Virus record (IMG/VR): IMGVR_UViG_2851938318_000001
From: a virus
Lineage: Duplodnaviria; Heunggongvirae; Uroviricota; Caudoviricetes
Reading direction: 5' to 3' (one strand)
Length of the DNA stretch: 64,000 bases
A program made the position numbers and the translations under genes. The first letter of the stretch is position 1; the number at the start of each line of letters is the position of its first letter. This document shows, in pieces, positions 7,459 to 57,130 of this stretch. A model generated the notes under the pieces. That model was not told where the DNA came from. It did not search any database and saw only the letters and a program-made list of their open reading frames with translations.

Positions 7459-7633
7459 TGGAGAGTTCCCTTTGCGTATATAATTATCGTCTGAAACAAC
7501 TTGTTTTCTTATATGTGATATAGCCTAAATGCCTACGGCTGCGGTGTAAAGGTTAAATGGTAGGTTGTGATTAACAATTTGAACCGCCCCGGAAATCCTG
7601 GAGACTAAACTCCCTGAGAAAGAGGTAAACAGG

Positions 7634-7960
7634 ATGACTAAAAATACTCGTTTTTCCCCCGAAGTCCGTCAGCGGGCGATTCGTATGGTTCTGGAAAGTC
7701 AGGATGAATATGACTCACAGTGGGCGGCAATTTGTTCCATTGCCCCAAAGATTGGCTGTACGCCGGAGACTCTGCGTGTCTGGGTTCGCCAGCATGAGCG
7801 GGATACCGGGGGCGGTGATGGTGGGCTCACCAGCGCTGAACGTCAGCGTCTGAAAGAGCTGGAACGTGAAAATCGTGAACTGCGCCGCAGTAACGATATC
7901 CTTCGCCAGGCTTCCGCTTATTTTGCGAAGGCGGAGTTCGACCGCCTCTGGAAAAAATGA
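7634..7960 (+). CDS. IS3-family transposase OrfA (HTH)
   Basis: 108 aa; A-run at the orfA/orfB overlap consistent with -1 frameshifting. Confidence 0.85.
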
Positions 7961-8847
7961 TGCCACTGCTGGATAAGCTGCGTGAGCAGTACGGGGTCGG
8001 ACCGGTATGCAGCGAACTGCATATTGCCCCGTCAACGTATTACCATTGTCAGCAACAGCGACATCATCCGGATAAACGCAGTGCCCGTGCGCAGCACGAC
8101 GACTGGCTGAAGAGAGAGATACAGCGCGTATACGATGAAAATCATCAGGTGTACGGTGTGCGTAAAGTCTGGCGTCAGTTGTTACGGGAAGGAATCAGGG
8201 TGGCCAGATGTACAGTGGCACGTCTCATGGCGGTTATGGGACTTGCCGGTGTTCTCCGGGGTAAAAAGGTCCGTACGACCATCAGCCGGAAAGCCGTTGC
8301 CGCAGGCGACCGCGTAAACCGTCAGTTCGTGGCAGAACGACCTGACCAGCTGTGGGTGGCTGATTTTACTTACGTCAGCACATGGCAGGGCTTCGTCTAT
8401 GTGGCGTTTATCATTGATGTGTTTGCCGGATACATCGTGGGGTGGCGGGTCTCATCGTCTATGGAAACGACATTCGTGCTGGATGCGCTGGAGCAGGCGT
8501 TGTGGGCCCGTCGTCCGTCTGGCACCATCCATCACAGCGATAAAGGCTCTCAGTATGTGTCACTGGCCTATACGGAGCGACTAAAAGAAGCCGGATTACT
8601 GGCATCAACAGGGAGTACAGGCGACTCGTATGACAACGCGATGGCTGAGAGCATCAATGGTCTTTACAAAGCGGAGGTAATACACCGTAAGAGCTGGAAA
8701 AACCGTGCAGAAGTGGAACTGGCCACACTAACGTGGGTGGACTGGTATAACAATCGACGATTGCTGGGAAGGCTGGGCCATACTCCTCCGGCAGAAGCAG
8801 AAAAAGCTTATTATGCTTCCATCGGAAACGATGATCTGGCAGCCTGA
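7957..8847 (+). CDS. IS3-family transposase OrfB (DDE catalytic domain)
   Basis: 296-aa ORF in the -1 frame relative to OrfA. Confidence 0.85.
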
Positions 8848-9089
8848 GTTCACAGATAAAACACTCTCCAGGAAACCCGGGGCGGTTCAATTGGCAATCA
8901 TAGCTTGTATTTGTCTGTTGAAAAAAGTAACAATGACCTCTATATTACAAGTACGGTGATATGCCGTACACAATTTGATAATGCACACGTAATGGGCTAT
9001 AGCCTTTTAAAGTAATTTTTGAGTCGAAAACTCAGTTTGAACAGAGGAGATTGATGGCCTTCCTACATCACGGCCATCAGGAGGAATAC

Positions 9090-15660: not shown

Positions 15661-18600
15661 TCACAGAAGGCCAATTCTCACTCGGAGGACGTTGTTATCG
15701 TCATAAACGTCAATCCGCTGACCATTTATGACCAATCGCCCATTGCCGCCGCTATTACCGTTAATCTCAAGCGTTCCATTTTTGCCGAACCGCCATCCAG
15801 ATCTACCGCTAACAAAATTGGTAGATTGCAGATCGCCTACTTTTGCATTGGTGATTGTGCCATCCTTGATATACGCACCATTCATATAGGCGATACTGTT
15901 TTCGATAACAAATGGCGTGGTGATCTTCCCGTTAACAGAGTTGACCAAACCAAATCTGTCCGCCTGCACCAAAAACTGAGAAAGACCGGTGGTGTCGATA
16001 CCAAGCGCAATACCGGCAACATACTTCTGCCCTCCGCTCGTTGAAGTCTCCATTTTCAACGTCCACGCGGTTGAGACTTTTTTGTTGGTATCAGCAATGG
16101 CTGTTGCCTGCTGTTGAATTGTCGCGGTATTTCCATCCACCTCTGCTTTCAGAGTATCGATTCGCCCACTTAGAGCATTATCTGCCTGCGTTCTCGCTGT
16201 CGTTTCAGTTGTGACCGCCGCAGAAATGTTGGCTGCTGTTTGAGACTCTAAGTTTGTGATTTGAGTCGCCAGTGCCGCATCTTGCTCTGTACGCGTTTTC
16301 GTTTCGGTTGCTACAGCCGCTTTAATATCCTCTTTGTATTGAGAGGTCAGCTTGGTGATCTGAGATGACAACGCCGAGTCAGCATCAGTTCGAGCCTGCG
16401 TTTCAACTGCAACGGCCGCACTAATATCTTTCGCAGTCTGTGCTTTTAAACTTGAAACCTCTTTTGTTAAAGCGGTATCACCATCTGCACGAGCCGTTGT
16501 TTCTCTGGCAAGAGATGCCTCGAGATCATTAGCTTTTGCTGTAAGAGACGTAATCTGAGTGGACAATGCACTATCGGCATCAGTCCTTGCCTTTGTCTCT
16601 ACAGCAACCGCTGCGGCAATGTCAGTTCCGGTCTGCGCCCGCAGGATGTTAATTTCTCGTGAGAGCGCCTCGTCAGCACTTGCTCTAGCCTCCTGCTCCT
16701 GAGTGATGGCGGCGGATATATCACCGTCAACCTTTGCTTGAAGCTGGTTTATTTGTTTGGCTAAGGCAGAGTCCCCGCTTGCTCGAGCCTCCTGCTCACT
16801 ACGTATTGCAGCAGAAATATCATCATCAACCTTTGCCTGAAGTTGGGTGATCTGGCTTGCCAGAGCCGAATCTTCCGTTGCTCGGGCTTCTTGCTCCTCC
16901 TTAATAGCTGCGACGATATCGTTGCTTACTTTCGACTCAAGCTGAGTGATCTGTGTCGTCAGAGCTTCATCGGCAGATGTACGAGCCTCCTGCTCTGTAC
17001 TAATCGCCGCGCTGATATCTCCTTCAAACTTAGATTGCAGCTGAGTGACACGCTTTGCCAACGCTTCATCGCCATCGGCACGAGCGGTGGACTCTTCCAG
17101 AATACTGGCCTTAATGTCTTCGCCAATTTCTACGCGAATTTCCTCAACCTTCGTGGCCATTGCAGACATATCATCAGCAAAGGTTTTCTGTGTTGTTGCG
17201 ATCTTCGCGTTATTGACCATCTGCTTGTGCTGGTCTTCATCTTGACGAAGAGCCAGGTCAATGTTTGTTTTGGCCAACGCCTCAATGTTCGTAGTCAGCT
17301 CTGCACTTGCACGATCGACCTCTGCAACCGTCTTTTTCATTTCTTCAACGGCAGCGGAGCTTTCCTCTACCGTTGACTGCAACACTTCCAGTTGTTTAGC
17401 GTTTGCAGCATCGCCTTCAACACGAGCCTCGCTTTCCTTAGCAATAAGAGCCGCCGCTTCATCTCTTGCAGCCTTTATTGCCTCGACTGTATTAGCGAGA
17501 GCTTTATCGTGTTCAGATACGGCGTTTTCGATTTCAACAATTGCAGCATCAGTAGCATCAATTTTTTCAAACGCTTCATTGACCTTGTCGATCGTTGCCG
17601 AAACCTCACCTTTAAGCTCGGTTTGTGCGTTCTCCAAAGCATCGCTACGCTCGTTGAATTTTATTTCAAAATCCGCGAGGTTATCGCTGAACTGCTTATC
17701 TAATTCAGCTATATCTTCCTTAACGTCGTTTACCGCCCCCTCCAAAGATTCGACGCTCTGGTTGATATGCTCATTTAACTCGTCAACTGCTTCTTGAGAG
17801 GCTTTGCTGTTGATGTCCTCAAGCAGAGCCTGACCAAGCTCGGAAGATGTAATTTTGCCAGTCAGGAACGACAGTACATCGCGAGTTGTCGCCTCTGTAC
17901 CCAAGTTTGAGTTCGGAGGACTTAACATACCTCGCTTGTTCGATGCTCGAACCCAGTAATACCACGTTTCACTATCCCCAAGACCAGCATGTGTAAAGGT
18001 GGTGCTTGCAGACTCTGCGATCAGTTTCGCCGTATCCAGATTGTTGGTCTGGGATGCGTAAACATTAATGTGATCAAGGTCTACCGAATCTGGATTAACC
18101 CAATTCAGTATCACATTACGATAGTCTCCAACGGCCGTTAATGACGTTGGTGCATCCGGCGGTGTCATTGTGCCCAGCACCTGATAAACGGTACTGATAA
18201 TTTCTGTTTTTTTACCGTTGAATGAAACCGCATACAGTTGGAAGTCGTAGCGTCCATTCTCCGCGACATTAACGATTTCGTATTGCTCTTCGGTTACACG
18301 CGCCGATTGCCAGTTCGATACATTGTTTTCATCAGAACGTCGCCAACTGATCCAATACTCTGGAGATTTCCCTTCCCATGTTGCAGTCAGTTTTACTGAC
18401 AGGTTGCCCGGGCTTGAGAGATAAGTCCCTTCAGTGATTTGCAGATTAGATGGCTTGGAGTAAGTTGGGTCCAATACCGTCGTATTCTGCGGGATCAGCG
18501 TTGCACCATTGTCGATTGCCTCATATTTAGACGGATTGTTCTCAACAGCGGTGATGTCAAAGCTACCCGGCGTTTCCCCCTGCGCGATGTTAACGATGCG

Positions 18601-19530
18601 AACGCGCATAGGTTCGAGGTCTGGTTCTGTAATAGTCCAGACGCCGTTCAAAACAGGCGTTTCAGCCGAAGACAGGGCTTTTGAAAACGTAACTTTTGTT
18701 ATATTTTCGCCAGTTTCAAGAACATCGCGTTCAACGATTTTGCCTTCCTGATTCAGTATTCGAATAAAGCAGCCGCCTTTGGCTAACGACACAGGCGCAT
18801 CGAGTGTGACGCTGTTTTTGGTAAACGCCACAATTCGACCTGAGTTACGTTTGCCTGCGCGATATTTGTTCTGAATCAGAACGGTTTCACCAGGCATCAG
18901 AAATGACGCGTCTAAGCCGGCAGTAAATGTAATTACATCCGACTCCATTCTGGAGGTATATAAAAGCCACAAACCAACTCGGTGAGCCTGCCCTCGGCTT
19001 GTACAGCCAAATGCTACGACTTCTGTTTTACGCTCACCATAACGGCGCATTGCGTCCTGATCTTCGACGTACTCGATGTTTTGCTTATAACCGTCCTCCT
19101 TGTTGTTGTAGGTTACGAGCGCAACGGATGGGCGATCTTTACGCGCAGAACCTTTATAGGTAAACAATCCATCTTTGACGTTAGAGTTGGTAAACATCAT
19201 TACCGGATCTGATGGGCTATCCTGCATGATGTTAACCATCCCACCAGCCCAAAACACCATGCCGCGGAATGCTCCGGCAATATCCTGAATTAGCCGGTAT
19301 GCGTCCTGTCGACTGGTGATCTGCGTATTGATTGCAAAGCGTTTCTCTTTGCCACCAAAGCCATCATCGACCTCTTCGTCACAATATCGACCAATCTGGT
19401 ACAACTGGCCAAGGTCAATCATAGATTCCGACACATACTGACCAAGGCCATATCGAGCATTGGTCAGCAAATCAAAGAGAATCCACGCGGGGTTCGAAGA
19501 AGACAACAGCTTAAAAGTGCCATCCCATAC
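15661..19530 (-). pseudogene. host-specificity (tail tip) protein J, C-terminal fragment, cut by IS insertion
   Basis: Reading frame stays open up to the IS boundary at 19530 and reads V-WDGTFKLLSSSNPAWILFDLL, contiguous with the lambda J-like N-terminal fragment; central coiled-coil repeats (ISAAI/EQEARA). Confidence 0.8.
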
Positions 19531-19572
19531 TGAACCGCCCCGGGTTTCCTGGAGAGTGTTTTATCTGTGAAC

Positions 19573-20463
19573 TCAGGCTGCCAGATCATCGTTTCCGATG
19601 GAAGCATAATAAGCTTTTTCTGCTTCTGCCGGAGGAGTATGGCCCAGCCTTCCCAGCAATCGTCGATTGTTATACCAGTCCACCCACGTTAGTGTGGCCA
19701 GTTCCACTTCTGCACGGTTTTTCCAGCTCTTACGGTGTATTACCTCCGCTTTGTAAAGACCATTGATGCTCTCAGCCATCGCGTTGTCATACGAGTCGCC
19801 TGTACTCCCTGTTGATGCCAGTAATCCGGCTTCTTTTAGTCGCTCCGTATAGGCCAGTGACACATACTGAGAGCCTTTATCGCTGTGATGGATGGTGCCA
19901 GACGGACGACGGGCCCACAACGCCTGCTCCAGCGCATCCAGCACGAATGTCGTTTCCATAGACGATGAGACCCGCCACCCCACGATGTATCCGGCAAACA
20001 CATCAATGATAAACGCCACATAGACGAAGCCCTGCCATGTGCTGACGTAAGTAAAATCAGCCACCCACAGCTGGTCAGGTCGTTCTGCCACGAACTGACG
20101 GTTTACGCGGTCGCCTGCGGCAACGGCTTTCCGGCTGATGGTCGTACGGACCTTTTTACCCCGGAGAACACCGGCAAGTCCCATAACCGCCATGAGACGT
20201 GCCACTGTACATCTGGCCACCCTGATTCCTTCCCGTAACAACTGACGCCAGACTTTACGCACACCGTACACCTGATGATTTTCATCGTATACGCGCTGTA
20301 TCTCTCTCTTCAGCCAGTCGTCGTGCTGCGCACGGGCACTGCGTTTATCCGGATGATGTCGCTGTTGCTGACAATGGTAATACGTTGACGGGGCAATATG
20401 CAGTTCGCTGCATACCGGTCCGACCCCGTACTGCTCACGCAGCTTATCCAGCAGTGGCATCAT
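19573..20463 (-). CDS. IS3-family transposase OrfB
   Basis: 296-aa ORF identical to the copy-1 OrfB. Confidence 0.85.
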
Positions 20464-20786
20464 TTTTTCCAGAGGCGGTCGAACTCCGCCTTCGCAAAAT
20501 AAGCGGAAGCCTGGCGAAGGATATCGTTACTGCGGCGCAGTTCACGATTTTCACGTTCCAGCTCTTTCAGACGCTGACGTTCAGCGCTGGTGAGCCCACC
20601 ATCACCGCCCCCGGTATCCCGCTCATGCTGGCGAACCCAGACACGCAGAGTCTCCGGCGTACAGCCAATCTTTGGGGCAATGGAACAAATTGCCGCCCAC
20701 TGTGAGTCATATTCATCCTGACTTTCCAGAACCATACGAATCGCCCGCTGACGGACTTCGGGGGAAAAACGAGTATTTTTAGTCAT
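20460..20786 (-). CDS. IS3-family transposase OrfA
   Basis: 108-aa ORF identical to the copy-1 OrfA. Confidence 0.85.
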
Positions 20787-20840
20787 CCTGTTTACCTCTT
20801 TCTCAGGGAGTTTAGTCTCCAGGATTTCCGGGGCGGTTCA

Positions 20841-21707
20841 TACCCCAGCGTAAGTGTTACTGGACTCGTTATAGTTTGAAGGTACTCGAATTTTTAGGCC
20901 ACGCACCAGATAAGAGCGAGATGGCATGGTGCTACCGAATTGCTCAGAGTTTACCTTCAATCCAACCAAAACAGAGTTTGGATAGTTCATCGGTGTATCG
21001 ACAATTTCCCCGATTGAATCCACCCATGTATCGTTATAGAGATACTGGCTACTGTTATCATCGGTAATACGGACTACACGAACCTTGTATGCGCGTCCAG
21101 GCTTAGGCAGCTTCAGCTCGTAGCTACGGTAATAAACGCCGGTCTTCTTTGCTGTTAGCTTAATGCCAACGCTTTTTTCACCTTCCGCGACCACATCTAC
21201 AAATGTTGAGTCGCCATTTGCTATCTGGAACTTGTACTCAACAGTCGTACCGTTCGTGTCACCAGTTTTTTTATCTATGCTTCGCAAAGAAGGAAACTTC
21301 ATGATGACACGAACCCGATCAGCTTCATCGTTATCGATTGAAACCGTTACATAATGTGTTTTTTTTAACTGGATATTGACGGATTTAGGCGTTTCAACGA
21401 AATCAAAGCCAGACATTGGAGTCTGGTCTTGTGAACCGTCGCGAAAATCCCATGTGATTCCGCTGAAGTTGGAGGAACCGTCTTCATTTACAATCGGCAG
21501 ATCGTCGATAAAAATAGATCTTGCGCCATTTACTAAGCCGCCAATTACCCCTTCCCCAAGAAGATCGAGGATAGCGGCCATTGCACGAGAATTTACGGTA
21601 TCGTCGGCTTCAACCGGTGTACGGCTGGAGCTTTTGCTGCTTTTTTTACCACCCGCACCGGCAATAAACAGCGGTAGCTTTTTCTTCTTGAACTGTTCCA
21701 TGTTCAA
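20841..21707 (-). pseudogene. host-specificity protein J, N-terminal fragment
   Basis: 289 codons ending ...VPSNYNESSNTYAGV exactly at the IS boundary; the stop codon is supplied by the IS end (TGA of TGAACC). Confidence 0.8.
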
Positions 21708-21718
21708 AAAATCCTTGT

Positions 21719-22312
21719 TTACATTAGCTGGTCAATCGTGATTGAAGAACTCACAACCTGTGAGCCAACCAGAATTTCCTCGCCATAGATAAGTTGTACT
21801 GGGTTGCCCTGGTTTTCTGTATTTTGAGGGCCGTCGAAATAATAAGAGTTCGAGTTATCTGCCTGTCTCACACTTTCGTTAGTGGCTTGCGGCGATATGA
21901 TTTGTGATATGCCGCCCATCATCAGTGACAAACCGAGAGGTGCTAAAGCAGGCATCACTACCGCCGATACAACCAACAAAGCGGCCCCTACTACCGTCTG
22001 AAACCACCCAAAAGCAGATCCACCGCTTCCTCGCGGAACAGGTGTAATGCGGATTTTGGCAATGTTGTCAGACTGCCCCATCATCTGATATTCACTTTCG
22101 TCAACAGACCACTTGTGGCCCTGTTTATTGGTGATCTGGATGTGGTAACTGTCATAGGTTTTGATATTGCGCTTCATCCATGCTTTAAACCCAGGCTTGT
22201 TGGCTTCAATTAAATCCAGAGCCTGTTTTGTATTGCGCACCTTTAGATGCCAGTGGCGACCAAAATGTTTAGCCATAGGGCCGCCAAGCTGCACATGAAC
22301 TAACTCAGACAC
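21719..22312 (-). CDS. tail assembly protein I-like
   Basis: 197 aa; C-terminal hydrophobic Gly/Ala-rich segment; position between K-like and J-like genes as in lambda. Confidence 0.75.
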   Translation of the reverse strand: MSELVHVQLGGPMAKHFGRHWHLKVRNTKQALDLIEANKPGFKAWMKRNIKTYDSYHIQITNKQGHKWSVDESEYQMMGQSDNIAKIRITPVPRGSGGSAFGWFQTVVGAALLVVSAVVMPALAPLGLSLMMGGISQIISPQATNESVRQADNSNSYYFDGPQNTENQGNPVQLIYGEEILVGSQVVSSSITIDQLM

Positions 22313-23124
22313 GTCTCATCTCCCTTGAGCAAGTCTCTGTGACGCAAGTGATGCGTCGTATGTTTCTGATACATTCCGCCGTAATAAGCACGACAACTAA
22401 GGCGGTCGATCTGGTGATGAAGAATCATTCCATCGCCGATATAAACCGCGCAGTGGTCAGGCATTTTCCCGTATTGGATAAAGAAGATGTCCCCACGTTG
22501 AGGCTCTGTTCCGGGCGCAAGACGCACCAATCCCTCGTTACGGTAGTTCTGATCGAGAATGTCGTTATCGCCGGTGTACCACGATGGAATATGCAGGTGT
22601 GCGTTCGGGTTTAGTTCGACGTTAAACTCACGCTTCAAATAGTCCCGACACAACATCCAGCAATCGAATACGCCAAATACATACGGTCTGCCCAGGTATG
22701 GCATTTCGAAACCATCAGGTGTGATCACATTCATCTCGCTAAAATGGAAAGGGGCATCTCCCTCAACATTCTTGCGAATAGCCAGAATCATCCACGGAAC
22801 TTCCGTCGCTTCGCAGCCTGCACGATCGGCATCAGATGCTTCTGCTGATTCATCAGTATGTGAATGCCAGATTGCGATAACATCACCCGCATCCTCTGCC
22901 GCCATAATGTCGTCAACGTGCATTACAAAAGTGTTCTGCTGGTTCTCCGAAACATTTCGCGCTTCCATAAAGCGATATTTGTCGCCATTAGTTCTAACCA
23001 GAAAGCCACACGCTTCATTAGGGTAGCGATTTATGGCGCAGAGATAGATTTGCTGCATAACGTCAGAGCCAAGCTCAGGGATTGCTTTATTACCCATACC
23101 GCGTAGCTCCAATAAATCCGCCAA
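22300..23124 (-). CDS. tail tip assembly protein K-like (JAB/MPN + NlpC/P60 domains)
   Basis: 274 aa; JAB-like EACGF...HSHTDES motif and Cys/His NlpC-like C-terminal part. Confidence 0.75.
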   Translation of the reverse strand: MADLLELRGMGNKAIPELGSDVMQQIYLCAINRYPNEACGFLVRTNGDKYRFMEARNVSENQQNTFVMHVDDIMAAEDAGDVIAIWHSHTDESAEASDADRAGCEATEVPWMILAIRKNVEGDAPFHFSEMNVITPDGFEMPYLGRPYVFGVFDCWMLCRDYLKREFNVELNPNAHLHIPSWYTGDNDILDQNYRNEGLVRLAPGTEPQRGDIFFIQYGKMPDHCAVYIGDGMILHHQIDRLSCRAYYGGMYQKHTTHHLRHRDLLKGDETCLS

Positions 23125-23820
23125 AATGGATCACACCGTCGGCAAAATAATTTCGACGCGCATTACAGGCGTCATAACGTTTTGTGCAGTAATCCGCACC
23201 AGACATAGACGTCTGCTGGTTATTTTTGTCGAAATATGGACCGGTATAGCCGCATTCTGGCCCTCGGTATTTCCACGGGCAGGTGTTTTTAATGATCTGA
23301 CGATACGGCAGTTGCACCCCCATCAAATCGAACACACTGGACAATTCAAACTCGACAACCTGATGAGTTTCGAGAGTTTTCTGTTCGATAAACCACATTT
23401 CATCCGGGAAATGTTGGTTTGGATCTGCTGTTGGGTTGCCGTCTTAAAATTAACGGCATCGAGGAAGCGAGCCAGCGTCATCTTGCGAATAATGCGGCAG
23501 CCAACAAGATCGTCGTTCGCCTGAACTTCCGCAGAGACGGTTCCGGCAAAGTTCGATACCTGAATTTTTGGACGTGGCAACGTTCCCTGGCCAGTTTTGT
23601 CAAAGCCTGATGCTTTGATTGGCCACGGCTCGTATGTCACTCCTTGCCAGACGACCGGTTGCATCAGTTCGTTTGTTCCGGCGTGGAAGAATAACTTCCC
23701 CCCTGAAGTTGTGTTCGACATATCCAGTACGAACAACTCAATGAGTGCAGAGGGAGATAAGCTCTGAATATCAGCTTTAATTCCCATTGTTTCATCCTTG
23801 AAATAAGTAGGCGCTAACAT
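23090..23820 (-). pseudogene. minor tail protein L-like, frameshifted
   Basis: Two overlapping ORFs (23323..23820 and 23090..23398) each match half of a lambda L-like protein; frames differ by one nt and join inside an A4/T4 run at about 23441..23452. Confidence 0.75.
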
Positions 23821-23869
23821 CCTGTCAGCGCCACAATGATAGTAAATTAGTACTTACTTATCCAGATGC

Positions 23870-24205
23870 TTAAGCCTCAAATACTTGTCTGAATGGAGCG
23901 GTTAATACTGCGTACCCTTGATATCGCTTGACCGTATGACTGTCGCATACAACTACAATCCGTTTTCCTCTTGGATTAACCCAATAGAACGACTCAACGC
24001 CTGCTCGCTCAGTCAGGAAGTCATCGATTGCATTAATTTCGTTGTATGATCTGGTAAAGGTTAACGACCATTCTTCTTTAATACGATTAAGACCTTGAGC
24101 CTGTCGCTGCTCGTAGTCATCACCAAAATTAAGTACCGTTACATTCGGTTTTACGCTTTTTTCAGATTCGTAATCTGGATACCAATTAAACGTTTGTCTT
24201 TCCAT
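23870..24205 (-). CDS. minor tail protein M-like
   Basis: 111 aa; position between tape measure and L. Confidence 0.7.
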   Translation of the reverse strand: MERQTFNWYPDYESEKSVKPNVTVLNFGDDYEQRQAQGLNRIKEEWSLTFTRSYNEINAIDDFLTERAGVESFYWVNPRGKRIVVVCDSHTVKRYQGYAVLTAPFRQVFEA

Positions 24206-24247
24206 CTCACATCCTTGTGAGACTGCCCCGGTCGGGGCAGTCGATAG

Positions 24248-27200
24248 TTAGTTACGTTGAGTGTTTGGGTTGAGTGATCCGCCAGGGCGTTTCTCTTGCG
24301 CGATAGTCTCAAGCGCGATTGCTTTCATCCGTTGAGCGGCATTGTTCCATATGCTTTCTGTATCGCCGGATTCAGTTGTGCTACCGTCACTATGGACGTT
24401 GATCTCAATTGATACCGGAGAAAGAACATTTCCTCCTCCACTCATACCATCGGTACTGAGCGTTACAGGGATTGTTCGACCATCAGGCAATGGAACATAC
24501 GCCTCATTCATAGAACCTTCCCCAAACAACGCTAATTGAGGCGAGTTAGCAATACCGCCTTTCTGGTATGCCCGGAGCGGGATCACGCCGTCTTTTCCGA
24601 ATATTCCTCCATTTGCAAACTTCGGGATTGCAGGAATGCCTTTAGTTCCGTCAGCCACACTGCTGGTTGTGGTTTTAGCAGAGCTTGATGTCACACTATC
24701 GAAACCACCGCCAGCCCAAGCTGAAACAAGACCAGATGCAACCGTTGCTCCAAAACTCAACCACTTATTACCAGAGCCGGAAGCATTAGCTCCAAGCATT
24801 GCAAACGCGGCAGACAGCGCGCCGGTAACAGAGCTGAGGTTCTGCATCGAGAAGATGGAGTCCTTCACGGCTTTTGTCTCGGCATCTTTGGCTTCAGTAC
24901 TATCAAATAGCCCTGATACCCAGCTACCAATCGCATTTGTTGCAGTGCCAATTGCGCTGGTGGTCTGCTGTGTTGTTTGCCCCAATCCAGTTACCGAACT
25001 GGACGTCTCCTTCGTGGCTTCTCCTACCGACTTGTCACCGTTAACAGTGTTGCCCATTCGTACCCCTTGATTGGCAACGGCGGAAGCAACCCCGGTCAGC
25101 AAATTACCACTCTGTGAACTACCAGCTGCGGTGGTTCCCATCCCCAACATGTTCATTAGAGGCAGCGTGATCTGCGACTTCACGACCATATTGGTGATAT
25201 CTTTCAAAATGGACTGAGACAGGCTGGAGAAGCTCATCTTCCCGTTAATAACGAAATCAGTCAGGACATCAGTTAAGCCACTAAACAAATCAGTCCAGGT
25301 GCTTTCGATCTGCTCTGCCAGGTTTTCGTATTCCAGTGCCAACTTCTGCGTCGCAGTCCCCGTCTCTTTAATAAGCGCGGTATTGCCAGCAGCAATAAGT
25401 TGATTGATTTTCTTTGTATAAAGCGCCACGACTTTAGGATCAGACGCCTTATCACGAAGTTCTATCAACGCTTTGAGATTGCGGTTGTAGGTGTCTTCGA
25501 AATCAGCAACTTTCTCTTCACGAGACGGCGTATAGCCAGCACTAATAATGGAATCTGATTCCGGTGCCCAAGTGGAGATCATCTGCTCAACATTGCGGCG
25601 ATTAAACATCTCGCGATATTCAGGTGTCGCATTTTTGAGGTCTTCAAGACGTTTTTTCGCCTTGTCGATCATCTCTTGAGTGATGAACTCGTTAGGAACC
25701 GCATTAGCCAAATCTGTCAGCGATTTCGTTGTATCGCGAAGAGACTGATCAAACGATACCGTAGCCTTAGAGCTTTCACCCATTTGCCCCATAAGCTGAT
25801 CGGCCTTGTCCAGAGCCTTCTGGTATCCGGCTGCCAGTTTCTGTTGCGCTGCCTGTTCCTTCTTGGCCGCACGCTGCGAGGCGTTAGCTGATCGTTGGGC
25901 TGCTTTCTCGGCGGCTGCGGCATCCTGTTCACGAGCTTTAGTCAGTGCGGCAATGGCTGCGGCACGCTCTTCATCGCTCATTTTCTCCAGAGAGCTGGCG
26001 CTGGATGCTTTCTGCAAATTAAGCTGCGTCTTGAGTTGTTTAGGCCCAATAATCGGCTTACCTTCGAAGTCCATCATCGGAGTGCCGTCAGGCAGAGTAC
26101 GCTGATAAGTCGCAGAATCCATCTGGTTTCGCATATATTGCGCCAGCGCCTTCTGAGCTGCTTTATCAGTTGTACCTAACCCCAGAACATCTCCATTGAT
26201 TGACACTAAGCCATTACCACTTTTGGCCGCGTTATCCCTCTTAAACTCTGCCTGAGTCAGTTCCTGAGCAACGACTTCCAAATGCTCCTGATAGCCACGA
26301 ATACTTCCTTGCAGTTTCTGAATCTGCTCGGTATTTCCTTCCTTTTTCGCTTTTTCAAGCTGATCATTAAGAGTCGCGATTTGCTTCTCGGTCGCATTCT
26401 TACGAGAAGAAAGTGAATCAACCAGTTTTTGCGCAGGCTCCAGATAGCTTTTGTTTACCGTTTCACGTAACGGTGCCAATAGCTTGTTCTTTTCGTCATC
26501 CGAAAGTGAACCGTCATCCTTGATTTTCTGGATTTTCTCCAGAGCCTCCTGACGAGCTTTCACGAACGTTGCCGCAAAGTCTCTATTCTCTTCGAGTATT
26601 TTCTCTATCTGGGATTCTGCCGTCTCTTTTGCCAGACGTTTGGCTACAGCCAAATCCCCTCTGGCAATAGTTTCATTGGTTTCATCGCGTTTCTTACGAA
26701 GTTCATTTAGCTCATTTTCTATTCGCTTACGTTCATCATGATTAATCTTTACTGTAGTTCCGGCCATACCCGGCCCATAAACCACCTTTTCGCCAGATTT
26801 TAACTCTTGTTCCTTTTGCGTGATTTGTTGCTCAAGACGCGCTTTATACTCGGCCATCTGTGCACGTTTAGCCGCCGTCATCGCTTCTGGTATTTTCCTA
26901 ATCTCGTCAACGACCTTTGAAGTTTCGCTACGAAGCATGGTCATATACGTGATTAAGCCAGCAACAGCGGTCATTGCAGCAGTGAAAACAAAACCTATCG
27001 GATTCGCCGCAATAAACGCAGTCAGGCCAGCAAAAGCGCCTTTAAGCCCCGTAATCGCCCCACGGATGGCGAAAATAAGAGAGGGGATCGGAGCCAGCCC
27101 CATACGTGCCGCACGATTGAATCGAGTTACTGCTGTAGCGCCGAGGTTAAATGGAGTCTGTATGGCGGTCGCCATCGTGGCAAAGGTGCTAACCATCTGG

Positions 27201-28828
27201 CTGCCAGCACCAACTACCCCCATGATCCCTGCTCGCATCAGTTTGAACGCAACCATCGCGGCCACGACCTTACCGAGATTAATTACCAGCTCTTGGTTCT
27301 TTGCTAACCATTGAGCAAGCTGACGCAACCCATCGATTGCCGTCGTTAACCCCGAACCTAAAGAATTGGCAAACGAAATCCCTTCGGCGCTATTCATGAT
27401 TGAAGCCAGTTCTTTCATCCCCTTTGATAGAGAATCCAGATATCCGGCCTGACCAACTCGATCAGCAAATAACGTGAATGACGTCTGAAGTTGCGCCAGC
27501 GCACCTGTGTAGGTTTGCATCATGTCTTTCGCTGCGTTCTCGTTCTCCGCACGCAGACCAACAAACATCAGAGACAACGCCTGTTTTGCCTCAACCGTAC
27601 CGCTGGCAACAGCTTTAGTCAGTTCCCCCATAGTGATGCCTGCGGCATCTGCCATTGCCTGCATCGCGTTAGGAACGGCTTCACCTAATTGCTGACGTAG
27701 CTCTTCCATTGACACAACGCCCTTACCGGACATCTGCTGAACGGCCACAGCCGCACGTTTCAACAGCTCACTATCACCACCAAAACGAGCAACGGAGTCC
27801 ACCAGCGCCTTCAGAGAACCATCGGTTGGATCTAAGCCAGCAGAACGAAACTTCACGAAGGAATCTGTTAACGCCTGCATCGCGAACGGCGCATTTTGAG
27901 CCATGTCTACGATGTACTTCATATCATCAGCGGCAGCCTGGCCAGGGTTGGACTTCTCCTTATTCAACCCTCGAAGCATCACCCGCATACGTTCCATTTC
28001 GGCCGCAGCTTCAACAATAGGCTTCTGCCACCCAAACATGATGTCAGTAACCGTTCTGGCTGCATCTCCGATCTCGCCAAGCAGGAAAATGTTGCCACGA
28101 AGGCCAGAGAACATACCTCCTTCGTTATTTTTACCGCTGTGACCAGAAGCGCCGCTACGCTGCCCGCTACCACCATCGCCACTTCCAGATGTACGAACGC
28201 GTACCGGCTTGCTAATCAGTTGCTGACGTCCGATAACTTCGTCCATCTGCTCACGAACCTTTTTCAGTCCCTCGGCAGCCTGACTCGTTGTGACCCCCCA
28301 ATTACTGAGTCGCTTCGTCGTGGTATTAAGGCGCGTATTCATGCCACTCACGGACGCAGATGCTTCTTTGACCTCCGTTCCAAAGCGGCTTGCGCTTTTG
28401 CTTGCATAGGTCGCCCAATCAGAGAAATCATTTAGCTCTGATTGCACTTTACGTAATGACGCAGTGAGTTTATCTACTGAAGAAGTTGTCGTATCGACGC
28501 GCTCAATCAGGGCTTTAAGACCAGAATTGAGGCTGGTGATGTTGCCACGCATTTTACGCGTAGCATCTGAAGCAAGCTCAAAACCGGCAGCTACATCCTG
28601 TAGTTTATCTGCCGTAGAATCGAGCTTGCTTTCCAGAACGCCAATGATACGGGCGACCGAACCCAAAGAGCGTTCAAAGGTTTGGATTTTTTGAGCAGGC
28701 TTTGTTACCTGCTCACCAAATCGAGTAAGCAGTTTCCCCGCACGATCGATTGACGCTGTAAACTGTTTGTCTTCCAGCGACAGGATAAACTCTACGTTTT
28801 GTGACATTCCCTTGTCATCCTCTGCCAA
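24248..28828 (-). CDS. tail tape measure protein
   Basis: 1526 aa; long alpha-helical and Gly/Ala-rich hydrophobic segments; position downstream of the G/G-T chaperone genes. Confidence 0.85.
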   Translation of the reverse strand: MAEDDKGMSQNVEFILSLEDKQFTASIDRAGKLLTRFGEQVTKPAQKIQTFERSLGSVARIIGVLESKLDSTADKLQDVAAGFELASDATRKMRGNITSLNSGLKALIERVDTTTSSVDKLTASLRKVQSELNDFSDWATYASKSASRFGTEVKEASASVSGMNTRLNTTTKRLSNWGVTTSQAAEGLKKVREQMDEVIGRQQLISKPVRVRTSGSGDGGSGQRSGASGHSGKNNEGGMFSGLRGNIFLLGEIGDAARTVTDIMFGWQKPIVEAAAEMERMRVMLRGLNKEKSNPGQAAADDMKYIVDMAQNAPFAMQALTDSFVKFRSAGLDPTDGSLKALVDSVARFGGDSELLKRAAVAVQQMSGKGVVSMEELRQQLGEAVPNAMQAMADAAGITMGELTKAVASGTVEAKQALSLMFVGLRAENENAAKDMMQTYTGALAQLQTSFTLFADRVGQAGYLDSLSKGMKELASIMNSAEGISFANSLGSGLTTAIDGLRQLAQWLAKNQELVINLGKVVAAMVAFKLMRAGIMGVVGAGSQMVSTFATMATAIQTPFNLGATAVTRFNRAARMGLAPIPSLIFAIRGAITGLKGAFAGLTAFIAANPIGFVFTAAMTAVAGLITYMTMLRSETSKVVDEIRKIPEAMTAAKRAQMAEYKARLEQQITQKEQELKSGEKVVYGPGMAGTTVKINHDERKRIENELNELRKKRDETNETIARGDLAVAKRLAKETAESQIEKILEENRDFAATFVKARQEALEKIQKIKDDGSLSDDEKNKLLAPLRETVNKSYLEPAQKLVDSLSSRKNATEKQIATLNDQLEKAKKEGNTEQIQKLQGSIRGYQEHLEVVAQELTQAEFKRDNAAKSGNGLVSINGDVLGLGTTDKAAQKALAQYMRNQMDSATYQRTLPDGTPMMDFEGKPIIGPKQLKTQLNLQKASSASSLEKMSDEERAAAIAALTKAREQDAAAAEKAAQRSANASQRAAKKEQAAQQKLAAGYQKALDKADQLMGQMGESSKATVSFDQSLRDTTKSLTDLANAVPNEFITQEMIDKAKKRLEDLKNATPEYREMFNRRNVEQMISTWAPESDSIISAGYTPSREEKVADFEDTYNRNLKALIELRDKASDPKVVALYTKKINQLIAAGNTALIKETGTATQKLALEYENLAEQIESTWTDLFSGLTDVLTDFVINGKMSFSSLSQSILKDITNMVVKSQITLPLMNMLGMGTTAAGSSQSGNLLTGVASAVANQGVRMGNTVNGDKSVGEATKETSSSVTGLGQTTQQTTSAIGTATNAIGSWVSGLFDSTEAKDAETKAVKDSIFSMQNLSSVTGALSAAFAMLGANASGSGNKWLSFGATVASGLVSAWAGGGFDSVTSSSAKTTTSSVADGTKGIPAIPKFANGGIFGKDGVIPLRAYQKGGIANSPQLALFGEGSMNEAYVPLPDGRTIPVTLSTDGMSGGGNVLSPVSIEINVHSDGSTTESGDTESIWNNAAQRMKAIALETIAQEKRPGGSLNPNTQRN

Positions 28829-29200
28829 ATATTTGCATCAGTTGCTCTTTGGCGTCAGGGTCTGCCTTATCCTGGCTTGGATCGTAGACTTTATCTGTTA
28901 CGACTGGTCTTCCAATCCTGAGTTGCAAACCCTCCATGAACGCCTTCACAGCCTCGCCATCCGCCTGGGACGCACGAGCGACTTGTAAGTTGCGGACATC
29001 CTCTTCCGCACGCAGACGGTCTATATTGCGACTGAGCATCCAGAACATCGTGAGAGGGATGTTCAATAGCTCTAATGGCGACACAGCGTAGTGAGCAACT
29101 ACACGACTGAAATAGAATCCGAGATCTATTGAAACGGTCCTTGTCCCGGATTCATCGCGGGAAATTACTTTGCCCCTTCGCCAGCCGCTTTTTCGTTTTC
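28815..29200 (-). CDS. T-frame extension of the tail assembly chaperone (G-T -1 frameshift product)
   Basis: ORF in the -1 frame relative to G; frame stays open through the 3' end of G (checked codon by codon 29085..29198). Confidence 0.45.
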
Positions 29201-29482
29201 TTCATCAATCACTTCCATAGCGAAGGTGAAGATCTGCTGGAGTTGCGGAACAGTCAGTTTTTCAAGAACTTCGTCAGGTACTGAAGGGATAACCTTACGA
29301 ACCAGATCTGCATAAGCTGTCACTTGCTCAACAGGAGACATGTTCATGAGATCTTTACCTTCCATCTGCTTGATGGAAACGAACAGACCTACCGTCATTT
29401 CAACGATGGGATATTCCTGACCGCCAAATTTGATGCTTTTCTTCGGAGGCAGAATGGAATCGAGATCGAGTAATTTGGTCAT
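29165..29482 (-). CDS. tail assembly chaperone G-like
   Basis: 105 aa acidic protein between major tail and tape measure genes; ends ...EKAAGEGAK over an A-rich stretch. Confidence 0.6.
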   Translation of the reverse strand: MTKLLDLDSILPPKKSIKFGGQEYPIVEMTVGLFVSIKQMEGKDLMNMSPVEQVTAYADLVRKVIPSVPDEVLEKLTVPQLQQIFTFAMEVIDEENEKAAGEGAK

Positions 29483-29537
29483 TGGTTAAAATCCTTTTAA
29501 AAGAGAGGCCCATCCTGAGCCTCTGCTTAATTACTGA

Positions 29538-30284
29538 TTAATCTGCGGGGTTAATCGTTACTGACTTAGTAGCCTTCTTAGAACCGCTATTGCTGGTGAA
29601 GGAGATGTTTGCAGTACCCTGCGCCACACCACGTACCAGACCCGTTTGATCTACCGTGGCCTTTTCCTGGTCTTCGGATTCCCAAACACCGGTTTTGTCT
29701 GCGGCATCAGCTGGAGTGATTTCGGCTGTCAGTTGCACAGTTTCTCCAGCTTTTACGGTTGGAGATTCCGGTGTGATCGACACAGTTTTTACCGGTTTGG
29801 GACCGCTCATTTTGCCCAGAACGCCTTCATCATCCGGGTATGCGCTGAACTGAACAGAGAACACACGAACATCATCAGACTGGTAGGTCATAGTGAAGTT
29901 GCCCGCGGTTGCCGCTTTCGGAATGGTCAACACATAGTCGGTGGTGTCCTGCGGAGTCAGAACCAGCTCCTTCGCCACATCGATCAGGTTGACGCCCTGT
30001 GCAGATGTGATCGTGACAGAGTTGTCATCTTCGCTCAGAGTAGAACCGGGCATCAGGTCAACCATGTTTTGGAGTACAGACTCAGCCAGAGGCGCGGTGA
30101 TGGTAATGTTGCGCCCCTGAACTAATTCGGAAATTACGGTCTGCCCCAACTGATCGACGGTGACTTTCAGCGTTTCAGTGGCTACTTCAACCTGAACACC
30201 ACCTTTGGTGTAACCCAAATCCACACCACCAAACGACACCTTACAGGCACCAAGTTTGATGTTTTTTACATGGGTATTAGACAT
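29538..30284 (-). CDS. major tail protein with C-terminal Ig-like domain
   Basis: Start placed at ATG 30284 (AAGGAG 10 nt upstream); C-terminal Ig-like segment VKTVSITPESPTVKAGETVQLTAEITPAD; the ORF could extend to 30320. Confidence 0.65.
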   Translation of the reverse strand: MSNTHVKNIKLGACKVSFGGVDLGYTKGGVQVEVATETLKVTVDQLGQTVISELVQGRNITITAPLAESVLQNMVDLMPGSTLSEDDNSVTITSAQGVNLIDVAKELVLTPQDTTDYVLTIPKAATAGNFTMTYQSDDVRVFSVQFSAYPDDEGVLGKMSGPKPVKTVSITPESPTVKAGETVQLTAEITPADAADKTGVWESEDQEKATVDQTGLVRGVAQGTANISFTSNSGSKKATKSVTINPAD

Positions 30285-30358
30285 TGATGGAAAACTCCTT
30301 TTTCCGTTAATTCTACGCATTCATTGCGCTAATGGTAAGTATATACTTACCTATTGAC

Positions 30359-30715
30359 TTAATTCAATAAATAGCCAGCAAATTCAACAGGAATGCCTGC
30401 TTCTATTAATGCCCCATCATTTTTGGGATAAATGATTGGCATCGCCATCGGTCGTACAAGTCGAAAATAAACACCACCAGATTCCGTTTCCTCTACTGGA
30501 AACATCTCAATGATTTTATTGGCTTTCTCAACCGTCGTAGTAATTGACGAACCACGCACAATGATTGTGAATGATTCGTGATAAAAGCCCTGTAGCTCAT
30601 GATCGATGCAGATGCCGGTATTTGGGTTAATAAGCAAGACGCCAGATTTCACATTGGCAGGCAAGTAGTGACAGAAAATGTCAGTCCCGACCGTGCCAAT
30701 CTTTGCCTTCTGCAT
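30359..30715 (-). CDS. tail terminator / tail completion protein
   Basis: About 119 aa from internal Met 30715; position just upstream of the major tail gene. Confidence 0.45.
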   Translation of the reverse strand: MQKAKIGTVGTDIFCHYLPANVKSGVLLINPNTGICIDHELQGFYHESFTIIVRGSSITTTVEKANKIIEMFPVEETESGGVYFRLVRPMAMPIIYPKNDGALIEAGIPVEFAGYLLN

Positions 30716-30743
30716 CAAACTTGCAAACGCTTCGATAAACACA

Positions 30744-31217
30744 TTAACCTCTCGTAAAACCGGCTTTTCTGGCAGCCTCAAGAATCGCTTCTGAGAACTG
30801 CTTCTCGCTAATTTCCACCGCTCTTTCCAGAAAGTGTGGCCCAACACGAGGTTTAACACCGGCAATTGGTGGATTTGTCACGTTCTTCATTCGAGAAAGA
30901 TAACCGAGTCGATATTTACCCAGCTCCATGTACTTAGCATAGTCACCTACTTCTACGCCCGGATGCCCCTGACGTGGTTTTGCTCCAGACACAGAAAGCT
31001 CAATGCGCAGCCCTGAATAACCTTCTTTAATCACCCTGGCAAAGATAGCTGTCTCCAGAGATCCGGTTTCCAGCGGAGCCATTGCACGGCTGAGACGCTC
31101 AACCAAACGCGCCAGCTTTTCCATGTCCCGAATAAGATATCGCTTAAATGCTTTCTGGCTGTTGTTGAGTCTATTCCCCGCACGTTTGAACTGATGCGCA
31201 TCGTATTTCAGACCCAT
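30744..31217 (-). CDS. head-tail connector / tail completion protein
   Basis: 157 aa; position only. Confidence 0.4.
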   Translation of the reverse strand: MGLKYDAHQFKRAGNRLNNSQKAFKRYLIRDMEKLARLVERLSRAMAPLETGSLETAIFARVIKEGYSGLRIELSVSGAKPRQGHPGVEVGDYAKYMELGKYRLGYLSRMKNVTNPPIAGVKPRVGPHFLERAVEISEKQFSEAILEAARKAGFTRG

Positions 31218-31552
31218 ATATTCGCCCCCACTTCAAGATGCCCAGGTCTTCCTCGTAGCCCCCAGCGACGATGAACACTGGACACCTTTAATTTTTGACC
31301 TTCAAGGATCAGCACATCATCAAGTTGTACAGCCGCTTCTAAAGGGACAACTAACACAGCATCAAACAACTCCAGACTCGCCTTACCACGGCTACCAGAG
31401 CTATCAGCACGAACTGACGATTTCTCATTACTCTGTTCGAACTTAACCACGCCGACATTCGTCTTCCTGACGAATTGCAATTGCGCCTCGCCGTAAACGT
31501 TCTTTGCGCCAAAGCGGTAGATCGCAATTTCTGTTTGCCATGAAATATTCAT
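31208..31552 (-). CDS. head-tail joining protein
   Basis: About 114 aa from ATG 31552 with GGGAGAGAG upstream; position only. Confidence 0.35.
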   Translation of the reverse strand: MNISWQTEIAIYRFGAKNVYGEAQLQFVRKTNVGVVKFEQSNEKSSVRADSSGSRGKASLELFDAVLVVPLEAAVQLDDVLILEGQKLKVSSVHRRWGLRGRPGHLEVGANIWV

Positions 31553-31631
31553 GCTCTCTCCCTGTTGTTGTCGGTCGCTCTCATTACTGGCCAAAAACCA
31601 TTTCGACCAAAAGTAAATAATGCGACTAGCG

Positions 31632-32465
31632 TTACGCACGGCGAACAATCATACGGTTGTTAATGTAACTGACCAGCAAGCGCCAGGTACTGCGAGCCAC
31701 ATGCACGTTTGCAGCTTTACCGGTACGGTACATGTTGGTTGTTTCACCGATGGACTCTGACAAAATGCCATCTTCTCGTGCTGCGGCAACATCATTGCCA
31801 TTTGCGATCTCACACGCTTCGTTGACAACGGCAAGCATCAACGCTTCTTTGAAGTAGTCAGGGAACTCTTCAAACTTCTCCTGCGTCATCTTTTCCCAAT
31901 CGACTAAATCATGCCGGTACGCTCCGTCTGCTCCCCACGGAATGTCATACACATTCAGCATATTTTGAGGGCGATCGTATCGGTCAAAGTCGATACGTAG
32001 AATTTTGCGGATTGAGAACGGTAAAGTTTTAATTCGTCTGGTAGCCTCAATGAGACGCTTGCGCATTAAGCCTTCACCATCCGACAGCAAAGTGTCCCCA
32101 TTCAGCATATCGATCGCCTGCATTTGAGCATCAGCGACAGTTGCAAACGACTGTTCTGGTATCGACAGTTCAAAACTATTCAGCAGAACATACATTTGCC
32201 GCTCTTCATGCGTCAGACCCGATGCAACAGCCTTCACAATGACGTACCGCAGATCGCGTTCTTTCTCAGAGAGCAGGTTATATTCAGCCGACACGACAAC
32301 CGGAATCGACATTTGCCCGCTGGTAATTTCTAGCGGCTCGCCATCAACGAGAATAGCCCCGGTGCTGTCCTTTACTGTGTAGGTGGCAGATTCGATATCC
32401 AGCACGTTGAAGGCAAATGAAAGAGAAACAGCTTCACCGCTACGATACGAGTCGATCTGCGCCAT
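31632..32465 (-). CDS. hypothetical head-tail module protein
   Basis: 277-aa ORF between capsid and tail genes. Confidence 0.35.
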   Translation of the reverse strand: MAQIDSYRSGEAVSLSFAFNVLDIESATYTVKDSTGAILVDGEPLEITSGQMSIPVVVSAEYNLLSEKERDLRYVIVKAVASGLTHEERQMYVLLNSFELSIPEQSFATVADAQMQAIDMLNGDTLLSDGEGLMRKRLIEATRRIKTLPFSIRKILRIDFDRYDRPQNMLNVYDIPWGADGAYRHDLVDWEKMTQEKFEEFPDYFKEALMLAVVNEACEIANGNDVAAAREDGILSESIGETTNMYRTGKAANVHVARSTWRLLVSYINNRMIVRRA

Positions 32466-32899
32466 TACTCACCGCCTTGTGCTTTCAGGATGCCTTCAAT
32501 CATCTCGACAATTCCTTTCGCTTTAACACCAACCTGATTACCAATAACTCGTAGACCGGCAATACCTTCGTTGTCTGCAATGGACTCCAGCTCTTCTCGT
32601 GTGAAAGTCTGGATCTGTTTGGCCGGTTCATCTGGTGTCCCACGTTTCATTGGCACAATGTCAGGCGCTACTGGCTCTGTAATCAGGTCTGCGGCCAATT
32701 CACCACGATCACTGTATGCGGCAGATGGGGAAACATTTTTTCCCTCTACTGTTGACGCTCGCATTGATGCACAAATTCTCTGCTGATCGATAAAAGGCAA
32801 CTCCGCTACGGATACCCCGTTCTCGAACTGAACGCCGCACAGCATTCCCGAATAACCGGAAAATTGCGGTTCTAATAAAACAATTTTTGCTGGTTTCAT
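32465..32899 (-). CDS. hypothetical head module protein
   Basis: 144-aa ORF, start overlapping the stop of the upstream gene. Confidence 0.35.
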   Translation of the reverse strand: MKPAKIVLLEPQFSGYSGMLCGVQFENGVSVAELPFIDQQRICASMRASTVEGKNVSPSAAYSDRGELAADLITEPVAPDIVPMKRGTPDEPAKQIQTFTREELESIADNEGIAGLRVIGNQVGVKAKGIVEMIEGILKAQGGE

Positions 32900-32943
32900 A
32901 ACGCTTTCTCTCCACTTGGGCGGCTTTCGCCGCCCAATATCGG

Positions 32944-33864
32944 TTATTCCTGTGCGGCAGTGACCTCTACGGTCGCTGTCGCTTTGTGGCTACCATCTTG
33001 TGTAGTAACCTCGATTGTGGCAGTGCCAGCCGCAACACCAGTTACAACACCGGTTTCGCTGTCCACCGTTGCAAACTCGGTATTTTTGGATTCCCAAGTA
33101 ACGGTTTTATTTGTGGCTCCTACCGGCTCGACATTTGCGGTCAGCTGAACAGTTTTGTTTGCCTCAACGGTTGTGCTATTTGGGTCGATTTCGACACCAG
33201 TAACAGCCACAACAGGCGCAGTTACTTCCACCGTTGCAGTTGCCTTTTTGCTGCCATCTTGGGAAACGATCTCAATCGTCGCAGTGCCAACTTCTACACC
33301 AGTTACGTTCCCGCTCTGGTCTACCGTTGCCTTATCTTCATTTTTGGAAGACCAGGTAACAGCCTTATTCGTCGCATTTGACGGCTGAACATTCGCTTTC
33401 AGACTGACTGATTTTCCTTTCTCAACAGAGGTTGAGTCTGGCGTTACCGTTACGGATTGAACGGCTACCGGATTTACGGTGACTTCCACTGAAGCGGAAA
33501 GCTGGGTTTCCTGATCAGTTGCAGTAATTTTTACTTTGCCTGGGGCTACGCCAGTTACTAATCCAGTGCCGTTAACGGTTGCAATTTGATCATTGGCTGA
33601 CTTCCAGGTGAATGAACTGGCACTCTTACCCATAGTAATACCTGCACTAAGTTGAACAGTTTTCCCAACCAAAACTGACGGTGAAGCCGGGGTTATGTTT
33701 ACGGATTGGGAGAAGGGAACCGCCTGCAAACAAGCAGATAGCTGACTTTGTTGTCGCTCGGTTAAAGGTTCATCGGAGATAGAATTGGTAAATCCGGCAC
33801 GGCACATATGCCCCGTAAAATCCGAAAATGCCTCTTCCGTAATCTTCATCTTTTGTTCTGGCAT
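32944..33864 (-). CDS. Ig-like (Big_2-type) repeat protein, probable capsid decoration
   Basis: 306 aa; three to four tandem ~80-aa Ig-like repeats (e.g. VTVTPDSTSVEKGKSVSLKANVQPSNATNKAVTWSS); immediately downstream of the capsid gene. Confidence 0.6.
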   Translation of the reverse strand: MPEQKMKITEEAFSDFTGHMCRAGFTNSISDEPLTERQQSQLSACLQAVPFSQSVNITPASPSVLVGKTVQLSAGITMGKSASSFTWKSANDQIATVNGTGLVTGVAPGKVKITATDQETQLSASVEVTVNPVAVQSVTVTPDSTSVEKGKSVSLKANVQPSNATNKAVTWSSKNEDKATVDQSGNVTGVEVGTATIEIVSQDGSKKATATVEVTAPVVAVTGVEIDPNSTTVEANKTVQLTANVEPVGATNKTVTWESKNTEFATVDSETGVVTGVAAGTATIEVTTQDGSHKATATVEVTAAQE

Positions 33865-55096: not shown

Positions 55097-57130
55097 TTAC
55101 TTAACCTGGTGGCCAGGTTTAGCACCAGCATCCGGGCTTAACAGGAAGATATCTTTCCCGCCGGGGCCAGCAGCCATCACCATGCCTTCAGAGATACCGA
55201 AGCGCATTTTACGTGGTGCCAGGTTAGCCACCATAATGGTGTGACGACCAATCAGTGCCTGTGGATCTGGATAAGCGGAACGGATGCCTGAGAAGACATT
55301 ACGCTTTTCACCACCGAGATCCAGCGTCAGGCGAAGCAGTTTGTCAGAACCTTCTACAAACTCTGCGTTTTCAATCAGCGCCACGCGCAGGTCAACTTTG
55401 GCGAAGTCGTCAAAGGTGATAGTTTCCTGAATCGGGTCGTCAGCCAGTGGGCCAGTTACCGGTGCGGCTGTGGCTTTCACTTCTTCTTTGGATGCTTCCA
55501 CCAGTGCTTCAACCTGCTTCATATCGATGCGGTTATACAGTGCCTTGAACGGATTCACTTTATGGCCCAGCAGCGGTTGCTGGATACCATCCCAGGTCAG
55601 TTCTGTATTCAGGAATGCTTCTGCACGTTCAGTCAGTTTCGGCAGTACCGGCTTCAGGTACGTCATCAGCACGCGGAACAGGTTAATGCCCATAGAGCAA
55701 ATCGCCTGCAGATCGGCATCGCGTCCTTCCTGCTTCGCCACCACCCACGGAGCCTGTTCATCGACATAGCGGTTAGCCAGGTCAGCCAATGCCATGATTT
55801 CACGGATAGCTTTACCAAATTCGCGGCTTTCCCACGCTTCACCAATCACTTCAGCGGCATCAGTGAAGGTTTTGTACAACTGCGGGTCAGCCAATTCGCT
55901 TGCCAGCACGCCGTCAAAACGCTTGTTGATAAAGCCCGCATTACGAGAGGCCAGGTTAACCACTTTGTTCACGATATCGGCATTCACGCGCTGAACGAAA
56001 TCCTCCAGGTTGAGATCGATATCATCAATGCGCGAAGAGAGTTTCGCAGTGTAGTAGTAACGCAGGCTGTCGGCGTCAAAATGATTCAGCCAGGTGCTGG
56101 CTTTAATAAAGGTGCCGCGAGACTTGGACATCTTCGCGCCGTTCACCGTCACATAGCCGTGAACAAACAGGTTGGTCGGCTTGCGGAAGTTGCTGCCTTC
56201 CAGCATGGCAGGCCAGAACAGGCTGTGGAAGTAAACAATATCTTTACCGATGAAGTGGTACAGCTCGGCGGTGGAGTCTTTCTTCCAGTATTCATCGAAG
56301 CTGGAGGTGTCGCCGCGTTTGTCGCACAGATTCTTGAAGGAACCCATGTAGCCAATCGGCGCGTCCAGCCAGACGTAGAAATATTTGCCCGGTGCGTTCG
56401 GAATTTCAAAACCGAAGTACGGCGCATCGCGGGAGATATCCCACTGTTGCAGACCAGATTCAAACCACTCCTGCATTTTGTTTGCCACCTGCTCCTGCAA
56501 CGCACCGCTGCGGGTCCATGCCTGCAACATTTCGCTGAAAGAAGGCAGATCAAAGAAGAAGTGTTCGGAATCACGCATTACCGGCGTAGCACCAGAAACT
56601 ACCGATTTCGGCTCGATCAGTTCAGTAGGGCTGTATGTCGCGCCGCAGACTTCACAGTTATCGCCGTATTGATCCGGCGCTTTACATTTCGGGCATGTGC
56701 CTTTCACAAAACGGTCCGGCAGGAACATGCCTTTTTCCGGGTCGTACAGCTGAGAGATGGTGCGGTTTTTAATAAAACCGTTCTCTTTCAGGCGAGTATA
56801 GATAAGCTCGGACAACTGACGGTTCTCTTCGCTGTGCGTCGAGTGATAGTTGTCATAGCTGATGTTAAAGCCTGCAAAATCAGTCTGGTGTTCCTGACTC
56901 ATTTCGCCAATCATCTGTTCCGGTGTGATACCAAGCTGCTGTGCTTTCAGCATGATCGGTGTGCCGTGGGCATCGTCGGCACAGATGAAATTAACCTCGT
57001 GGCCGCGCATTCGCTGGTAACGAACCCAGACATCAGCCTGGATGTGCTCCAGCATATGGCCGAGGTGGATTGAGCCGTTAGCGTACGGCAGCGCGCACGT
57101 CACCAGAATTTTCTTCGCGACTTGGGTCAT
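55097..57130 (-). CDS. metG: methionyl-tRNA synthetase
   Basis: 677 aa from [26 protein letters not shown] (HIGH motif), KMSKS motif present; the 720-aa track ORF has an N-terminal extension upstream of the real start. Confidence 0.95.

Follow-up and report, generated by a model that had tools for sequence, protein, structure and literature searches.

A frameshifted gpL-type tail gene in a phage-plasmid of Escherichia coli with an IS-interrupted J gene

The L gene of the phage-plasmid analysed here is a frameshifted pseudogene of the lambda gpL family. A single base has been lost from a run of three, and a protein that relatives make from one open reading frame is spread over two. The deletion, in an E. 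coli phage-plasmid that belongs to the pRM9131-1 lineage and is probably SSU5-like, is very probably a real mutation, and a very recent one, and leaves an ordinary pseudogene. It joins an older lesion, the interruption of the tail gene J by IS1203. Positions refer throughout to the window, that is, the whole 64,000-nucleotide stretch of DNA that was analysed.

The gpL-family gene and its two frames

Gene L lies on the minus strand. The region was examined on both strands, and the three minus-strand frames were translated. The 5' part (23323..23787, minus) starts at ATG 23787, reads 115 native codons, continues through 39 out-of-frame codons and stops at TGA 23325..23323. The 3' part (23090..23443, minus) lies in the -1 frame and holds codons 116-232 (DGNPTADPNQ...GATRYG) followed by TAA; the cysteines at 170, 179, 201 and 208 are all in this part. 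No single uninterrupted full-length L ORF was found in the window, the 1-nt deletion and the premature TGA at 23325..23323 standing in its way. The split is a deterministic fact of the sequence, to which a chance test does not apply.

The first-pass annotation had described an ORF at 23323..23820 that reads ...ARFLDAVNF and then leaves its frame, and a neighbouring frame that carries on to a cysteine-rich C-terminus. Translation bears out both descriptions. The native part of the ORF ends in ...RKMTLARFLDAVNFK (...ARFLDAVNFK), and the 39 residues that follow bear no resemblance to the family; the -1 frame is opened by GAC at 23443..23441, directly after a TAA, and runs DGNPTADPNQHFPDEMWFIEQ...NTCPWKYRGPECGY...YCTKRYDACN...GATRYG to its stop at 23090. 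The two frames join at the plus-strand c-tt-aaaa-tt, 23443..23451, inside the range of about 23441..23452 that had been proposed. The true start is likely to be ATG 23787 rather than the ATG at 23820: AGGA is found 9 nt upstream, and the 232-aa form is the one in RefSeq; no record was found of the 165-aa form that would begin at 23820. The predicted truncated product thus has 154 aa, 115 of them native and 39 aberrant.

That this is an L-type minor tail gene, as had also been claimed, is evident from profile and structure matches. Against PF05100 (Phage_tail_L), with a cut-off of 25 bits for a profile match, the 5' ORF scores 138.6 bits (profile positions 3-93 of 206), the 3' frame 144.7 bits (106-206 of 206) and the restored protein 322.5 bits (3-206). 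Two further matches come from the intact homologue: to lambda gpL (8iyk_L), with E 4.5e-44, and to the baseplate hub protein of an F2-pyocin. Lambda gpL (PDB 8iyk chain L) is about 40% identical to the protein here over residues 12-228, has the same length as the restored form (232 aa) and occupies the same position, in an M-L-K-I-J module after the tape measure gene. The order tape measure-M-L-K-I-J was established in the window from ORFs, Pfam matches and the annotation of pRM9131-1. What sets L here apart from its lambda counterpart is the split caused by the 1-nt deletion after codon 115, which leaves no more than the N-terminal half to be translated in the native frame.

In lambda, gpL and gpJ together form the conical tail tip, and gpL's C-terminal domain binds a [4Fe-4S] cluster through Cys173, Cys182, Cys205 and Cys212 (PMC10721106). 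In the alignment to 8iyk_L these four residues are matched by Cys170, Cys179, Cys201 and Cys208 of the restored protein. The four aligned C-terminal cysteines, which mark a putative Fe-S domain, are all 3' of the frameshift.

The genes on either side, all on the minus strand, are intact. Upstream of L is an M-like minor tail gene (23870..24205; PF05939, 117.6 bits, and the pRM9131-1 annotation). Downstream is a K-like gene with JAB and NlpC/P60 domains in Pfam (22300..23097), whose ATG at 23097 overlaps the natural stop of L (ATGGGTAA). This K-like gene has a GGAG of its own upstream of that ATG; its expression therefore need not depend on translation of L. An I-like tail assembly gene of 197 aa follows (21719..22312), identified from the ORF list and the pRM9131-1 annotation.

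Mutation or sequencing error

At the affected site AATTTTAAAGAC of the relatives has become AATTTTAAGAC in the window. In the alignment, the plasmids pRM9131-1 and pNT1F31-113kb and the phage Cyrano all have AATTTTAAAGACGGC where the window has AATTTTAAGACGGC. What is missing is one A of a coding-strand AAA; the plus strand reads TT at 23444..23445 (the coding AA of AAG) and TTT in the relatives. Adding one A at this place yields exactly the 232-aa protein WP_000511445.1. The first-pass annotation had placed the frameshift in a homopolymer run. One base of a run has indeed been lost, but the run is short: three bases, AAA, adjoining a T4 run. The simplest mechanism would be replication slippage in the short TTTTAAAG tract, turning AAA to AA after codon 114. 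Translation would then retain Lys115 (as AAG) and proceed through 39 wrong codons to the stop, giving a protein that would lack residues 116-232, and with them the conserved DGNP...WFIEQ segment and the putative four-cysteine Fe-S domain.

The closest relative is pRM9131-1 (NZ_CP028430.1), from the bovine E. coli RM9131. The whole window (64,000 bases) aligns to 98546..34546 of its reverse strand without a mismatch, and the single gap in the alignment is the missing base in L; the two are otherwise base-for-base identical, the IS1203 insertion in J included. Across L, identity to the window is 98-99.6% in about 200 further plasmids and in 4 phage records. The phages are isolated ones (Cyrano, PhiR41_1 and two CMS-2020a records), which match the L region at 98-99%; unlike the window, the SSU5-like phage-plasmids and phages of E. 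coli, these among them, have AAA and a single L ORF of 232 or 243 aa. More widely, in 1,697 phage records an undivided stretch of coding sequence accounts for at least 80% of the L protein. The deleted allele is carried by none of the 201 complete E. coli plasmids and none of the 177 PLSDB records that match the site (the window's own record is absent from the RefSeq complete-genome and PLSDB collections searched), and is therefore the derived one. An exact 37-mer of the deleted allele has no match in IMG/VR, the JGI metagenomes or the GTDB representative genomes.

Two metagenome scaffolds, ERZ28659719 (L021:450-1162) and ERZ28587822 (L024:1-671), also seemed to have a split L; these were set aside as assembly artefacts, not independent lesions, the alignment revealing 10-N scaffolding gaps with a 4-base duplication. 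Such N-gaps yield false L fragments in protein collections.

The same distribution can be turned against the mutation. The first-pass annotation had offered a real lesion and a sequencing error as alternatives, and on the second of these the plasmid's true sequence would be AAA, with L intact, and the window's assembly would hold a consensus indel error. Taken by itself, the pattern of no substitutions and one indel in 64 kb resembles residual long-read error: the sole difference from pRM9131-1 is an indel in a base run, of the kind that such sequencing typically leaves behind, and no annotated complete record shares it. On the other side, a run of three bases is not a usual site for consensus error, and a single error in 64 kb would be an unusually clean error profile.

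Public read sets supply the evidence that largely decides for a real mutation. The Logan assembly of SRA run SRR7826944, made separately and from k-mers, holds the exact 154-aa truncated L product. The deleted L is on a contig of 18,583 bp that is reported from two samples. Of its sequence, 12,974 bases were read, and these are 100% identical to window positions 20814..33787, the deletion included. The contig ends 27 nt inside IS1203, as a de Bruijn assembly built from accurate reads at k=31 would on reaching a multicopy repeat. The presence of the deleted allele in this assembly is strong evidence against an error of long-read consensus. The contig might share its isolate, or even its reads, with the window's assembly; in that event it would still exclude long-read consensus error, yet it would not be a biologically independent observation of the allele. 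Independent sequencing with one base more in the run had been put forward as the outcome that would restore a single ORF. Such a base is present in the sister plasmids, pRM9131-1 and the one assembled from SRR28419906, whereas SRR7826944 carries the window's deletion. An artefact is accordingly unlikely, and a real deletion is the reading followed below. The case also illustrates that suspected homopolymer errors can be checked against public read-set assemblies even where the original reads are not to hand.

Recoding at the junction

A real deletion need not abolish the gene if ribosomes can cross the junction. Some L function would be left if translation slipped by -1 at U_UUU_AAG, or if it reinitiated at UGAUG to give L in two pieces; a leaky L of this kind would act as a phase-variable-like switch in tail production rather than being a pseudogene. 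There is some material for the idea. A -1 shift after AAG (...NFK-DGNP...) would recreate the wild-type protein exactly; the stop codon that ends the 5' ORF shares bases, at 23325..23321, with an AUG in phase with the 3' frame; and the downstream RNA folds slightly better than its shuffles (z = -2.06).

Against this, the two-frame layout occurs in 0 of 378 relative records, so that no adaptation to it has evolved. AAU_UUU_AAG_ACG, the zero-frame reading, contains no canonical X_XXY_YYZ heptamer; in the -1 frame, a TAA directly before GAC leaves a window of one codon; tRNA-Lys would have to re-pair on UAA with a first-position mismatch; and the sole structure found, the one with z = -2.06, is a weak long-range stem. 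Reinitiation would give a 77-aa product from which residues 116-155 would remain absent. A rescue of L would, moreover, be inconsequential with J split. Neither a conserved two-frame layout nor a slippery heptamer with a downstream stimulator, the marks of programmed frameshifting, was found at the L junction, and programmed frameshifting was rejected: the layout is unique to the clone, the heptamer is missing, the window is one codon wide and the structure is weak. Recoding of any sort, leaky or programmed, is thus most improbable, and L is best read as a pseudogene.

The TGATG overlap itself (premature TGA and native-frame ATG, 23325..23321, minus) looks fortuitous. Gene callers respond to it by emitting a 77-aa C-terminal 'L'.

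The tail module of lambda does include a gene pair with two overlapping frames, that of the G/GT tail assembly chaperones, which are joined by a -1 frameshift, and in this outward respect the split L is similar. The G/GT arrangement is conserved across relatives and relies on a slippery site; the split of L occurs in this clone alone and lacks a canonical heptamer. Two small ORFs of the window, 29165..29482 and 28815..29084, lie upstream of the tape measure gene and resemble the G/T chaperone pair; the downstream frame is open in -1 across the end of the first ORF. A candidate -1 frameshift lies at about 29165..29172 (minus), GCA_AAG_UAA, with A_AAG at the stop; it would join ...GEGAK to VISRDESG.... 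It carries no annotation in pRM9131-1.

Order of the lesions and decay of the phage half

The first-pass annotation had counted L as a second lesion of the tail module besides J, and this holds: J is interrupted by IS1203, a 1310-bp element of the IS3 family, at 19531..20840 (minus), with a 3-bp target duplication, TAC, at 19528-19530 and 20841-20843. The 5' fragment of J (20838..21701, minus) has 287 codons, its TGA being supplied by the IS1203 terminus; the 3' remainder (15661..19530, minus) is back in frame after the duplicated GTA codon. A second copy of IS1203 is present in the window at 7580..8889, flanked by a 3-bp target duplication, ATT.

The IS1203 insertion in J is exactly the same in pRM9131-1 as in the window, and the junction was found in no complete E. 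coli genome or PLSDB plasmid other than pRM9131-1. The 287-aa J::IS1203 fusion product is also present in the Logan assembly of SRR28419906, on a contig that is identical to the window save for AAA in L. A match of the 287-aa fragment to an ENA scaffold was discarded as evidence for the IS junction; it reflects only a contig end, at 97% identity. As the junction occurs together with an intact L, in pRM9131-1 and SRR28419906, the insertion in J is older than the deletion in L. The deletion must be extremely recent, since no substitution accompanies it in 64 kb.

The element is an E. coli phage-plasmid of about 117 kb, and all 218 E. coli matches to the L region are on plasmids of about 100-120 kb. 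pRM9131-1 carries repA, ParB-family genes, terminase, portal, capsid and tail genes (a complete siphovirus module) and dfrA51, a gene defined from SSU5. The probable SSU5/pHCM2-like placement rests on this gene content, on dfrA51 and on the plasmid and phage relatives. With seven copies of IS1203, one IS91 and several other split genes, pRM9131-1 is an element already decaying, eroded by IS expansion.

The window also contains metG (methionine-tRNA ligase) and apbC (an Fe-S cluster carrier), genes of chromosomal type, at 55098..58389. About 200 plasmids of the same family have the pair, at 95-99% identity; it is therefore a family trait, not a recent capture. The company of an Fe-S carrier and an L protein that putatively binds an Fe-S cluster may be coincidence, or the two may be linked.

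L is required in lambda for assembly of the tail tip. By analogy, the 154-aa product should be unable to build one, and the function of L would be lost. The consequences for the element are probably small. The IS1203-split J would already have prevented the formation of infectious virions, so that selection would no longer have acted on L, and the deletion that followed is for this reason expected to be selectively neutral. It would then be the second hit, itself without effect on fitness, to a phage half of the phage-plasmid that was already decaying.

The outcome is ordinary, a well-known tail gene turned recently into a frameshift pseudogene, and the deletion matters little beyond annotation. 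There, L calls for the label of a frameshifted pseudogene, and the element should be entered as a defective phage-plasmid that carries two lesions in its tail genes. The pair of lesions does offer a cleanly ordered snapshot of decay at near-zero divergence, IS1203 in J and then a point deletion in L, and this order is in line with the decay of phage-plasmids into plain plasmids that is known already.
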